Below, piece by piece: positions 13,101-19,100 of a stretch of 64,000 nt of DNA. The position numbers were made by a program, and so were the translations under genes. The stretch spans positions 489,597 through 553,596 of the forward strand of contig MU057984.1 of assembly GCA_013265495.1 (NCBI GenBank). The letters run 5' to 3'. Source of the stretch: Vicugna vicugna. Lineage: Eukaryota. How positions within the stretch are numbered: the stretch's first letter is position 1; every line of letters starts with the position of its first letter. Below the pieces are notes generated by a model. That model did not search any database. It saw only the letters and a list, made by a program, of their open reading frames with translations, and was not told where the DNA came from.

Positions 13101-16100
13101 AGCGGCATCTTCCACTGAAATAGGATGATGAAATTTAACATATGAAGTGTTTTCAAGACTTTGCAAAACTTATAAGGAAAGGATGAGATATATCCATTAG
13201 AGAGATGCCAAAATTCTATATACTATTTTGATAGTTTGCCTCTTCCCTGATCTTAAAAAACTGAAAGCAAAGTTAGTACGGAGGCAAAATAATAAAGTAA
13301 CCTCCTCTTCTTCATTACTTTCTTTATAGCCTAGTGTCTAAGGTATCATTTTGACTTTCAAAAAAGTGACTTACCAAAAGAGTTATGGTGTGGTTTGTCA
13401 TAGGCCAATTTAGGTTTATCTACTACGCTTTAAGTCAGAATAATTTAAAGAGAAATTGGTTAAGATATTCTGGGGGATAAGGTAAAAGACTACAGAACTA
13501 ATCCTGATGCAACAGAGGAGAAATGAGTATCCTCCTTTGGGCAGGAGAAAACATGTAAATATAAAGCTTGAATGAAAGATCTCAAATGCTAACCTCTACT
13601 GTGACTATTTGGGAAATCTTAACATGTTTCTTGGTTTAAGAAAAAAAAAAACTCTTTCATCACTTTAAACACCACTCAGCCCACAATTTAAATCAGGAAC
13701 AACAACTATAAATAGAGTATTTTTAGAATGGTCTGGATCTAGATCCCAGTTGCTACCATAACATTCCTGATGACAGAGTTAAAGTGAGGAAAAAAGGAAA
13801 AGTATGTAATTAAATATGGAATGTAACATCAACAATGTGTATTTTCTAATGTTGGTGTTTTAAAATCATCTATCTTTTTTCCCCATAAAACAAAATAAGA
13901 GACAGAAAGAAAAAGGGGGTAAGAGGAGAAGAAAGGGAGAGACTGCGGAAGAGAGAGAAACAGATTTTATGGGACATTAAAAGGACAAAGTAGATGAAGT
14001 GTACTCAAATAAATCTCATATGAAATACCTAAATATTAGCATTAGTCAATCTATAAAGACTAAAGTATTCACAGCATAGTAATCATAACAAAAAATTAAT
14101 TTAAATTATGTGGTCTGATCCAAATAAGATTCCAAGATTCTACCTTACCTTGAAATAAGCATGGTTTGGTCCTACATTGTGAAGAATGGCTTTCCTCCAA
14201 GTTGTTAACCCTTGAGGGCTATTACTGAAGAATAAGCTTGGTTCTAAAAATCTGACCTCGGTATGACCAAGCTAATAACAAGAGGAAGAAAGAGAAAATA
14301 AAATTGGATTAACAGTAAACACGTTTTTATCCTCTACCAGATAACTCAGATTTTTTCAGCTTCACAGAAATTTCTAAAATACAAAGTGTTATCAGAGTTT
14401 ATGTGTGCTTAAGAGAAAGGAAAAGAGAATAGAATATTTAAAATGTCCTTCTCAACTGAAGAAGGCAGGGGTAGTAAGAGAACTCTAAGGACCAAGTAGA
14501 ACCAGGACTGAGAATTATGGAGATTAATCACTGAAGGGGATGTGAGAGATCACCTGCCCCACTACATACAGCATGTTACTAAATGTTAACGCAAAAGGAA
14601 AAAGTTCAAAGGTCACAGAAGTATGGGAAATCAGGTGCCAAAAGAGATTATCCAGGCATGTATCTACCAAAAGTCTTCTTATAGGGCTTAATATGCTGAT
14701 AATGTACACTCTGCTCATCTGAGAATGGGGAGGTCATTCACTGGGACTCACCGAGTTACCTCGCCACAGGACTCTCTCACCTTGTCCTACACAAATCAGT
14801 TCACAGAAAACTTTTTGGAAATGTTGGTATTATCCACCTCTCCCATTTTACAGGAAAGCAAACAGTAACCACGGGGAACTAGAACCCAAGATTTCTAACT
14901 CCTCATTCAGTGCTCGTTAGAACAGACCCTATTGCCTTTATCTAATACACATTATTTCTTATTGTATTAGGAGATTTTACTACATTCTTATAATTACTTG
15001 AAGAATATGATTGGAGTAATCGGAACAATAAACTTTCAAAAAAGGCTAACAGGAGATGAAATGGTCCAGTAAGTCCTTCACATCTAATGACAAACCTTAA
15101 ATGAACATTTTATTGAATCATTTCATGTTCCTCCATCTTTACTTTCTTAAGCATAACACTTCACAGTTCACCTAACTTGTAATGACCTTGGAAGGGACAC
15201 TTAGTGACTGGAAGTGTGGCGTAGCAGGGAGTTTCTGTTGTGATGCTAGTCATGTTCTGTTTCTTGATCTGGTTTATCTGGGTGTGAGTTACAAAGGCGT
15301 TACCAGTTTACAAAGATTAACTGAGTGATACATACTTTATAATATGTGCACCTTTCTGTATATATACTATACTTCAACAGAAAGTTTAAAAAAGAATAGG
15401 AAGTGATTTAAACACAGTGAAAGCACTAGGACCCAGCTTATTTCAAGCCTGGAGCAGAGGAAAGACACTACTAATTTCTGACTGCCACTAGCCATCATTA
15501 AACTGGATGAATCTCTTACACCTTAAGGATATAAGTGCCTTCATAGCTGAAATACGTAAGAATGTGATCATGGCCTGGAGACAGAAATGGGATTTAGTAA
15601 AAGAGTATTGGGTTGTGCTAAACTACTAAGAACACTGGGAGGAGAATTTGGCACACGAGTAAAATGGATCCTTGGTGATTAAGAGTCATGAAGTTAAGGC
15701 CTTCTGGGCTCTACCACAGAAAGAAAGTTAACATTACATATTGCAGCCTTCATTTTACTTACATTTTTATTACAAGAAGTATATTCTATAAGAATTTTCC
15801 ATATTTTCTTGCTATGTGAATCACATGATCCATTTCATACTGAATTATTAATTATAACTAGAATACTAAATAGGTAGTAGAGCAAAACTATAATTTTCTC
15901 TATTTTCCTTTGGCATTTATTAATGACATAAGTTAATTTCAAGTGGCTCCCATGGTGATATATATTTATAAAAGTTCTAATAACACTCTAGTATTGTTGG
16001 CACAAGAGCTTTGGATTTCTGAGTTAATTTTAAATAACCCATTTTTTAGCAAAGTCTTCATTTATGGAAGAGAAGTGGCTGCAAGAAGATGCTAAAATAA

Positions 16101-19100
16101 TTTAGTTAACTAAGTACTGCATGCAAAATCAGTTTTTAGTAACATACTATATATACCCAACTATATACACATATGTATACCCAACCAATTTAGAGCCCAC
16201 AAAACAGAAATCGTATTTAAGTGAAATCATTACACGTGCAAAACATTTCAGTGTCAGCGTGTTTCCTTCATCGATGTGAAGAAGAAACTCTCCCTTCTCT
16301 GGCGAATCAAAATCCGGTTGCCATGTTACTTCACACTCCAGTGAAGAATGTGGTTCAACAGTGCCTACAGAGGATTCAGAGAGAATGAGAAATTTACCAC
16401 ATATTAATCACATTTATTTTTTTAATATCCAAAATAAGAGCTGGCATAAAAATGTGCTAACCTTATATAACAGATTATTTAAACTCAAAATATAGAAAAA
16501 CACTAAATGAGAGGTTAACAATTGAGTATAAACCCAGAAAATTTGATTAAAATCTAAAATTATACCTTATCTTTTCAATTTTAATAGGCAGATAAAATAG
16601 TCAACAAAAAATATGCCAATATTTGGCAAAAAAATTGAAATTTATCAATGAAGTGAACACTTTAAGATTAGAGTTGGCTTTACACATGGATGGTAGAAAA
16701 CCATTTGTGATCCCTGATCACACGTACCCCCCTCCCAACAGGTTTCCCAACACTCAGAAATACTTACTTAACAACACTCATTCAATTTTTGGAGGAAAGA
16801 ATTACCATTACCAGAGGCATTTTTTTTTTGTTTTAATGTTCATATCCCTAGAGATGTAACTTCTGATGTACCTATTAGTAAACACATTTCTATAACTCAA
16901 ATATATTGAGATCCCAGGAGATACCAGGCACATTTGCTGTGAGCTGCTTTGCCTATTTAAATTCATCATCTCCTCTGGACTAAGAAAATAATACTTGATG
17001 GAAAGAATGACTTAGAAGTTTGTTTTTCAAGGAGAGGATCACCTGAGATTCAAAGGCCCAGGATACTGAACAGAGAGATGAGTGACCATCACAAACTTTG
17101 CCTTGAGTCAGGTTGCCTCTCATACGATGGTAGTTTCCCCAGTCTCAAAAAAGATATAATTCCTACCTCCTAGCTCTGCAGTGGCCACGTAGGGAGATAA
17201 CACATGTATAGGGAGTAACATAGTATGTGATGCCTAGAAAGCACCCACTGTGAGATACTATTATTAATACTTTTGAATGCAAATACTATGGTCGGCACAG
17301 TAATTTATAAAAAGAAGAGAAACTGCTTGTGGAAGAGCTAATAGTCTAAAGTGGATCCATTAAGATTATATTTGTCTTTAAGTAACAAAAAGTCCTATTA
17401 CAGTGGGTTAGGTAGACACGTGTTTATTTATCTTATGCAATCATAAGTCCACGGGCAGGTATTCCAGGACTGCCTTAAGAGGCTAACCAATGCCTCCAAG
17501 GAGCAATGCTCCTAGCTTCCCACACCTCCATTCCTTATCATGTTGCCTTCCTCGGTGTGGAAACATACCAGAGCATAGAGGTTAAAAGAGCACAAATTCT
17601 AGGGTCAGATTCCCTGGTTCAAATTTCAGCTCTCATACGTACTAGCTGAGACTTTGGACAATTTACTTAACCTTTGTAACATAATTTTCTCATACATAAA
17701 GTGAGGATATAACAACTGCACCTAGCTCAGAGAATCATTGTAGGGATTAAACAAGCTAATATAAGTAGAAGGACTTCAAACAGTGCTGGCAACCAGAGGG
17801 GAAATAGAGCTAAAATAATTTCTGTCCATATCTCATTGGCAAGAAAGACTGAGGCAGTGCTTGCTTTGCCAGCACATATACTAAAATTGGAATGATGCAG
17901 GGATGATAAGCATGGCCTCTACACAAGGATGATGCAAATTCATGAAGTGTTTCAGATTAAAAAAAAAAAAGTCTGAGGAAAAGAGATTTCTAAATAAGAA
18001 CATCTATCACAACAGGAGATGGATTTAAACAAATAACTGTACATGACAAAACAAATACATAATGGGAGTGTAAAAATGGTTGAGGAAGGAGTTCTAAATT
18101 AGCCCAAGAAAGTGGAGGAAACTTCATTATTAGGACAAGGCATCTGAGGTGTGACCAAAGGAAGAGCAGGAACTCTGCAGGAGGACAAAACCTGGGGGAA
18201 GTATAAAAGTCAATGAACAGTACTGGAAAAGAGTGGTGTCTGTAGAAGACTGATGGGAAGTAACTGAAAAAGGAGAGTCCATGCTATTTATAAAGACACC
18301 CTGAGCTTGCTGAAAAGAGCTGAGAGCAACACAAGGATTACAGATCTATGTGGAAGGGTCACCTTGAGGTCAATATTTTCCCTTCAACCAGCATGGCTAT
18401 ATATTTTTCTCTAGGAATATTATATCTATTGGGGGACAGGGGAAATAAATTGGATGGCTGAACTGAGCAAGGCTGGACTGGCAGGGCACATACTACAAAT
18501 GGCCAAGGAGTGAGAGAATTGAGGAAGATAGTGCGAATGAATTGACTGAAGACATGTTTAAGGACTGAATAGGCTCAAGGATTCAGGATGGTTAAAGACA
18601 ACAAGGAGGAACACGTAACAAAACAAGCAGAAACATGAACAATATCTAAAGAAAGTCAAATCAGAAATCAATTCTATCTTAGAAAATCTCAATCTACTCT
18701 TACATCTTTCCCTTACAGTATCCACTATCCAAATACACATCCAAAATGTATCCTGCCTCAGAGAGAAAGAACAATCACAACATGAAATTTAACTTAAAAC
18801 TACTCATTTTAGTTTACAAAAACATAGAGATATTTTTTTAAATGTATTATGCAGGATGTAAAACCAAGTATAGGGTAACAAAATTTGCCACCATAAAATG
18901 TATCTCTTTGGCATGAGGATTAATTCAAGCTTATTATTTTTAAGAAACAGAAGATTCAAGAAGTTTTTTTTCTTGTGATCTCCCCCTTAACTACCTGAAA
19001 GGATTTATATAACGGGCTAGTTCCCAGAATAGAGCTATCACCAGAGATACCTGCAGAGAATATGGGCTATTTAGGTGAGATGGGGTGGGGAAGCTCAGTT

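Follow-up and report, generated by a model that had tools for sequence, protein, structure and literature searches.

CFAP47 intron 16 in the vicugna: a possible leaky early exit with an unselected read-through tail

Intron 16 of CFAP47 in Vicugna vicugna is best explained, in our judgement and with moderate confidence, as a leaky early exit from the gene, with an unselected intron-encoded tail and a by-product as its outcome rather than a conserved isoform. The window analysed here is a 64,000-nucleotide stretch of contig MU057984.1, and the features concerned are collected in Table 1. A short human form, the CXorf22/CFAP47 isoform of 976 aa (NM_152632), ends with a 28-aa tail past exon 16. 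The initial annotation had proposed that such a short isoform, including its tail, may be conserved across eutherians. The homologous tails, the weak donor across placentals and the plausibility of an intronic poly(A) end speak for this proposal, but conservation of the 28-residue tail has to be given up.

CFAP47 was placed on the minus strand by tblastn with the sloth protein (P0002) as query. Exons 1-16 join into a stop-free product of 929 aa, which is 60.7-83.2% identical to the 17 named CFAP47 proteins compared, those of artiodactyls being closest; this identifies the gene as a CFAP47 orthologue. With the 28 tail codons the short product comes to 957 aa, in agreement with the initial estimate, and the in-frame intron codons, the TAG after them and the first two AATAAA hexamers are all present as first described. 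Intron 16 is 1962 nt long, and Pfam Ig-like matches flank the junction, at 842-911 (P0006) and 940-1025 (P0034).

Table 1. CFAP47 features in the window, in order of transcription.
Feature	Position	Strand	Basis
Exon 1, coding part from start codon	61071..61265	-	tblastn; stop-free join of exons 1-16
Exon 15; own donor also reads through 36 codons	20841..21082	-	tblastn, exon joining
Exon 16; phase-0 end just past Ig-like (ASH-type) domain	16234..16364	-	tblastn; Pfam on homologues P0006, P0034
Weak 5' splice site of intron 16, without G at -1 and +5	16228..16236	-	lowest of 17 donors
In-frame extension of exon 16 by 28 intron codons (P0001)	16150..16233	-	translation; homologous tails
TAG stop; a residue instead in ORFs P0056, P0110, P0112, P0113	16147..16149	-	sequence, ORF comparison
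Proximal AATAAA, followed by A-rich tract, not U/GU-rich element	15916..15921	-	motif scan
A-rich tract (13 or more A per 20 nt); possible oligo-dT mispriming site	15891..15913	-	base counts
Distal AATAAA; better poly(A) candidate by eye	15766..15771	-	motif scan
Stretch homologous to alternative last exon of cat RefSeq isoform X4	15260..15307	-	13/16 residues
Third AATAAA of intron 16, downstream of cat-homologous stretch	15109..15114	-	motif scan
Exon 17, continues long protein in frame	14149..14271	-	tblastn, exon joining

The exon-16 donor (CGT|GTAATG) had been called weak, and is indeed the weakest of the gene: in a leave-one-out matrix built from the gene's own 17 donors it scores 1.73, the others ranging from 2.8 to 12.35. 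By matches to the generally accepted consensus (5/9) it is tied with the donors of exons 13 and 14, and exon 12 has a GC donor. The second intron residue is Met or Ile, i.e. +5 is T, in 33 of 34 aligned rows; in 25 of the 34, exon 16 ends in His or Asn as well, so that G is found neither at -1 nor at +5. Judged from these protein alignments, the feature shared among placentals is a weak donor located at a domain boundary. In L001, a bird-like locus, positions -3 to -1 read AAG, and the protein of the bat-like P0060 suggests a shift to a consensus-like donor. Weak 5' splice sites are associated with intronic polyadenylation (PMC6428223).

The tail itself is far more variable. Among 18 other placental lineages the 28-codon frame is kept in nine, which span primates, bats, carnivores and artiodactyls, broken in eight and ambiguous in one. 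Breaks are found in fallow deer (tail of 5 aa), cattle (frameshift) and the ruminant ORFs P0111/116-118 (frameshift near codon 19), i.e. in all three ruminant lineages counted, as well as in squirrels (10 aa), the mouse-like P0059/125 (9 aa), P0060 (frameshift at codon 2), the primate-like P0122 (15 aa) and P0114 (13 aa, possibly cut by its contig end). A single 90% cluster holds an intact frame (P0121), a stop (P0122) and a frameshift (P0057), and a mole-rat tail is possibly in frame with 10/31 identical residues. Left out of the count were musk deer, where the 24-aa model has probably been adjusted, P0057, which appears to share the P0122 stop, and elephant shrew, where the model continues into a further exon some 20 residues on. 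Where an in-frame tail has a readable end, it measures 28, 34, 34, 40, 42, 42 or 55 aa, and only one of these seven lineages stops at codon 29; the vicugna has this stop in common with P0121. Natural tail ends range from 5 to 55 residues. Neither the frame (9/18) nor the stop position (1/7) is preserved as in a conserved coding last exon, and stops and frameshifts in other mammals, named beforehand as evidence against the initial proposal, are frequent. Broken or of other lengths in so many species, the tail looks like ordinary inherited intron DNA.

Substitutions point the same way. Invariant columns make up 4/26 of seven gap-free in-frame tails and 17/32 of exon 16. Changes in the tail have a mean BLOSUM62 score of -0.84, against a single-step neutral expectation of -0.37; for exon 16 the corresponding values are -0.26 and -0.61. 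By this protein-level proxy for dN/dS, tail substitutions have no conservative bias of the kind seen in a coding last exon. In neutral simulations under nine settings, with branch lengths from general knowledge and the mole-rat scored both ways, the mean number of intact lineages was 3.9-8.7 and P for the observed 9 or 10 of 18 was 0.01-0.54, which places frame retention towards the top of an approximate neutral range. The pig tail is identical at 20-21/26 positions, above the pig's own exon 16 (30/43), and tails are more alike than short intronic stretches further upstream, for which ungapped comparison over 8-13 residues gives 0-50%. In metagenomes, the exon-plus-tail protein gave 209 pattern matches, none of which was confirmed; a degenerate exon-16 pattern found one locus, the bird-like L001, without blastn match to the window, and no mammalian intron DNA.

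The open frame and the AATAAA hexamers are likewise within chance expectation. Read-through of at least 28 codons occurs at 4 of the 17 CFAP47 donors, a fifth reading 27, and an open frame of 28 codons begins at 8351 of 42768 intronic start positions. AATAAA lies within 320 nt of 21.8% of 3732 sampled intronic positions, and two copies within 470 nt of 7.8%; A[A/T]TAAA less than 500 nt from the donor and past the read-through stop is found in 7/17 introns, and the three AATAAA past the in-frame stop of intron 16 correspond to a density of about chance. Tail hydropathy is ordinary (GRAVY 1.10), being equalled or exceeded by 72 of 438 intronic 28-mers; the five tyrosines, encoded by TA-repeat-like DNA, are matched by only 5/438. 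A Pfam search of the tail found no domain. A tail-anchored membrane protein was also considered and rejected: the usual transmembrane hydropathy threshold is near 1.6, and the best 19-residue Kyte-Doolittle mean of the tail, 1.22, is reached by 134/438 intronic peptides.

By eye, the distal hexamer is accompanied by TGTA at 15774, 15763 and 15738 and by a T/GT-rich stretch about 40-55 nt downstream, whereas UGUA and U/GU-rich elements are absent around the proximal one. Four RNA runs from one study (X1-X4) contain 0.29-0.33 of 247 words sampled from 14100-16500; the expected share is 0.082 for exons alone, 0.225 with the intron up to the proximal site and 0.288 with the intron up to the distal site. 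The observed share would fit an end at the distal site and is taken only as a lead, since a related species, carried-over DNA or RNA that was never spliced could produce it as well. Runs X5-X10 (0.10-0.17) have a small word share and were left out of the argument.

Homologous tails are found on CFAP47 models of about 950-980 aa in pig, cats, marmoset and Myotis. In fallow deer and snow leopard, the RefSeq models also end by read-through at intron 16, and cat RefSeq X4 ends at another exon within the same intron, to which no AG acceptor corresponds before the homologous stretch here. Models such as cat X4 rest on RNA. The UniRef models of cat, lynx and lion stop at tail residue 28, but the snow leopard RefSeq model, of the same cluster as cat, has the cat's 28 residues followed by 27 more; similarly, the Myotis model ends at 28 and its clustermate P0113 runs to 34. 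Several 28-residue database models therefore look trimmed to human length, at least in these comparisons. As apparent projections of one human isoform, 28-residue-tailed CFAP47 models call for caution in annotation and are better not treated as separate lines of evidence that the tail is conserved. Other CFAP47 models end elsewhere, in many places (1019-1312 aa). As for the human tail itself, the sequence given in the initial annotation matches P0121 at 23/28 and marmoset P0010 at 21/28 positions by eye, and so is at least close to a real primate sequence; its length of 28 is not generally shared.

The trimmed models also raise the possibility, which we regard as less likely, that there is no real terminal exon at all: intron 16 would be a plain intron, and database models would echo one human cDNA-based annotation projected onto other genomes, the cDNA possibly stemming from priming at an A-rich tract or from RNA that had not been spliced. 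The contrast between the 28-residue cat, lynx, lion and Myotis models and the longer snow leopard and P0113 ones fits this explanation, as do the A-rich tract after the proximal hexamer, the chance-level open frame and hexamers, and the absence of the word "isoform" (0 occurrences) from the CFAP47 papers text-searched. Yet exon 16 has the weakest donor of the gene, one that is weak across placentals, and a human projection would not yield the novel exon of cat X4 in intron 16. At the other extreme, a eutherian-wide isoform of about 957 aa with a functional hydrophobic, Tyr-rich tail, e.g. a membrane- or partner-binding end, is very improbable, and for eutherians as a whole already largely refuted. 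Frame retention in half of the lineages, the codon-29 stop in common with P0121, the pig identity and the unusual tyrosine count would agree with it; breaks within primates and in all counted ruminants, the rarity of that stop, radical substitutions, unexceptional hydropathy and the TA-repeat-like origin of the tyrosines do not.

Alternatively, the truncation may be conserved and used while the tail is not, the weak donor being retained as a means to end a regulated fraction of transcripts once about six ASH domains are encoded; such ends would lower full-length CFAP47, or yield a C1-binding fragment unable to bridge to C2. The near-invariant T at +5 and frequent lack of G at both positions, the AAG of L001, the junction between Ig-like domains and the additional exit in cat argue for this possibility, as does the division of binding sites given in PMC12297659, where ASH1 and ASH4 bind C1, ASH7 binds C2 and ASH8-9 bind HYDIN. 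Nevertheless, we consider it unlikely: weak donors are common in the gene (exons 12, 13 and 14), P0060 apparently does with a consensus-like one, and a patient without exons 28-62, who retains this region, is reported in the same paper to mirror the knockout, which argues that no short form substitutes for long CFAP47. More speculative still, and improbable, is a deliberately weak donor held by placentals for a regulated intron-16 exit with an irrelevant tail, throttling CFAP47 or freeing a fragment that binds the C1 seam. Lineages could arrive at such an exit by read-through or, as in cat, by a repeat-derived last exon, and the fragment could tune central-pair assembly. If true, a regulated early exit would be relevant to the amount of CFAP47 in sperm and in airway cilia, and to the interpretation of variants close to the exon-16 donor in ciliary dyskinesia and male infertility.

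Under the leaky exit that we favour, the donor would be missed in some transcripts, and cleavage would follow inside intron 16, the likeliest place being some 20 nt beyond the distal hexamer. The resulting mRNA would code for the first 929 residues and a chance intron-encoded end, without the parts reaching HYDIN and the C2 microtubule. The tail would be inherited intronic DNA evolving at a neutral or near-neutral rate, resembling that of other mammals by descent, its length set by chance stops. Its hydrophobic end probably marks the product for degradation by the BAG6 pathway, which captures intron-encoded hydrophobic tails according to bioRxiv 2022.07.20.500724; like such clients, the vicugna tail comes from an intron, is encoded by T-rich DNA and has a moderate hydrophobicity. 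Several observations count against a leaky exit: frame retention at the upper neutral end, the high pig identity, the tyrosine count, tail identities above those of upstream intronic stretches, the shortness of the intron and the other CFAP47 models ending at 1019-1312 aa.

A literature search found no paper on a short CFAP47 isoform among the titles and abstract starts listed, and none on intronic polyadenylation of CFAP47. Judged from marmoset, pig, cat, Myotis and P0121, the vicugna form would share with the human isoform the exit after exon 16 and a homologous intron tail; it differs in that 28 residues are no placental rule and in being a predicted form. Composite terminal exons of the Pcf11 intron 1 type, as described in PMC6428223, have in common with it a weak donor, an in-frame intronic stop, downstream hexamers and a truncated N-terminal product. 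Pcf11 intron 1 is reported there to be highly conserved and to contain a validated site, whereas CFAP47 intron 16 is short, about neutral at its start, and has predicted poly(A) sites. Full-length CFAP47 is a 20-ASH-domain bridge of the central apparatus (PDB 9IJJ; PMC12297659), its N-terminal part being these first 929 residues; unlike it, the short form would be without the ring, the CH domain and the C2 anchors. The solved chain has 3184 aa and was matched by the exon-plus-tail query only over query residues 1-44, and the pig short form matches 9IJJ chain 4A over residues 1-926.

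The 5′ part of CFAP47 lies on the minus strand of the window, where the joined exons 1–16 provide 929 codons without a stop and are 60.7–83.2% identical to 17 named CFAP47 proteins, those of artiodactyls being closest. Read unspliced beyond exon 16, this frame gives a product of 957 aa (exons 1–16 plus 28 intron codons). The initial annotation had read this anatomy correctly, and its coordinates for the donor, the 28-codon frame, the TAG and two AATAAA motifs were all confirmed in the sequence. The anatomy is real, and corresponds to an already annotated short form, which in human we take to be 976 aa long.

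Features of the CFAP47 exon 16 read-through in the window
Feature	Position	Strand	Remark
CFAP47 exon 16	16364-16234	minus	phase-0 end at donor CGT/GTAATG
CFAP47 exon 17	14271	minus	position at which the frame resumes
Read-through stop TAG	16149-16147	minus	reached after 28 unspliced codons
AATAAA hexamers, intron 16	15921, 15771, 15114	minus	

With a score of 1.73 (leave-one-out matrix, same gene), the exon 16 donor is the lowest of 17 CFAP47 donors, the others scoring 2.8–12.35; against the general donor consensus, the donors of exons 13 and 14 are as poor. Apart from this weakness, the open frame and nearby hexamers are ordinary: read-through of at least 28 codons occurs at 4 of the 17 donors, a frame without stops for 28 codons follows 8351 of 42768 intronic starts, and an AATAAA lies within 320 nt of 21.8% of sampled intronic positions. 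The tail had been described as hydrophobic and Tyr-rich, of which only the second holds as a distinction, since its hydropathy is equalled in 72 of 438 intronic 28-mers. Its five tyrosines (matched in 5/438) are its sole unusual property, and derive from TA-repeat-like DNA. Elsewhere in the gene, the exon 2 donor reads 102 codons into intron 2 (56339-56645, minus), the longest of the 17, and the exon 12 donor is of GC type (AAG/GCATGT; 25525-25533, minus), followed by a 99-nt intron with which the frame is intact.

Conservation was compared at the protein level, using named models and short unnamed contig ORFs crossing exon 16 to the next stop (P-numbers denote sequences compared). Exon 16 continues into the intron in 34 mammalian rows. 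The second intron residue is Met or Ile in 33 of these, and in 25 the exon also ends in His or Asn, leaving no G at either −1 or +5; judging from these residues, the donor has long been weak. Locus L001 (~3001-3026, minus), host DNA within a metagenome contig, carries a bird-like exon 16 of CFAP47 with AAG preceding GT, an exonic donor context stronger than that of placentals.

The rows were collapsed to 18 lineages besides the window, with musk deer, P0057 and elephant shrew set aside. The proposed preservation of the frame across eutherians is contradicted: it is kept in nine lineages (pig, P0056 group, cats, P0109, P0110, P0112, Myotis with P0113, P0121, marmoset) and broken in eight. Tails end after 5 aa in fallow deer, 10 in squirrels, 9 in P0059/P0125 (mouse-like by exon resemblance), 15 in P0122 and 13 in P0114 (possibly a contig end), and are frameshifted in cattle, the P0111 group and P0060, the shifted parts matching the window +1 frame. 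Mole-rat is open for 31 codons, and was scored ambiguous because identity is just 10/31. Intact, stopped and frameshifted tails coexist in one 90% cluster of primate-like ORFs. In the bat-like P0060 the shift occurs at codon 2, which would fit a one-base loss at donor +5 yielding a more consensus-like donor.

Nor is the stop position shared. In-frame lineages with a readable natural end have tails of 28, 34, 34, 40, 42, 42 and 55 residues, placing the stop at codon 29 in one of seven. UniRef models of cat, lynx, lion and Myotis end at residue 28, but their cluster-mates run further, so that these ends appear trimmed to a human-length template; those of pig and marmoset may be likewise. Among seven gap-free in-frame tails, 4/26 columns are invariant, against 17/32 for exon 16. 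Tail changes are not more conservative than the single-base expectation (−0.84 versus −0.37), whereas those of exon 16 are (−0.26 versus −0.61). Tail identities to the window of 14–18/26 correspond to simulated neutral distances of ~0.2–0.3 substitutions per site. Against a neutral tail count the higher identity of pig (20–21/26) and the lesser likeness of short upstream intronic stretches (0–50%). In a coarse simulation on a tree with assumed branch lengths, 3.9–8.7 of 18 lineages would be expected to stay intact; the 9–10 observed (P 0.01–0.54) therefore fall in the upper part of the simulated range, and inclusion of the tail in the search query favours intact copies among matches. Weak constraint may act on the donor-adjacent DNA. 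With frame and stop varying and no conservative bias, these comparisons indicate that the tail does not form a conserved end of the protein, and a need for it across eutherians is excluded.

Most likely, splicing occasionally fails to use the exon 16 donor, and the RNA is then cut within intron 16, where the hexamer at 15771, distal to that at 15921, would, by eye, be the best candidate; weak donors are linked to intronic polyadenylation in the available part of PMC6428223. About 0.3 of the words of window 14100-16500 were found in four RNA runs of one study, a word-share count that carries no positions. According to the accessible text of PMC12297659, ASH1 and ASH4 of CFAP47 contact C1, and the HYDIN and C2 contacts lie beyond the short form; the product would retain the former and lose the latter. 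A patient without exons 28–62, keeping the short-form region, is reported there to mirror the knockout. The product would probably be unstable, because BAG6 substrates include intron-encoded hydrophobic ends (bioRxiv 2022.07.20.500724, portion available). Less probably, early exit may be regulated independently of the tail. No paper on the short isoform was found by targeted literature search, although a printed account may exist, subscription papers lying largely outside that search. The word “isoform” is absent from the accessible parts of PMC11023651, PMC10767284, PMC12237681, PMC10326514 and PMC12297659; the long protein is cited as Q6ZTR5-5 in that of PMC12237681, which implies several listed isoforms.

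The exon 16 junction sits between two Ig-like Pfam hits, by our numbering after about the sixth ASH domain. Cat RefSeq isoform X4 (P0028) passes from exon 16 to a different 16-residue end, matching window 15307-15260 (minus) at 13/16 positions, with no more than 6/16 anywhere else in the region scanned; in this species no AG acceptor precedes that homologue. Other CFAP47 models terminate at many further places in the gene, so early ends are not peculiar to intron 16. By eye, the stretch in which 15260-15307 lies resembles an old L1 3′ end, and window ~18900-19440, in intron 15, an LTR-type repeat.
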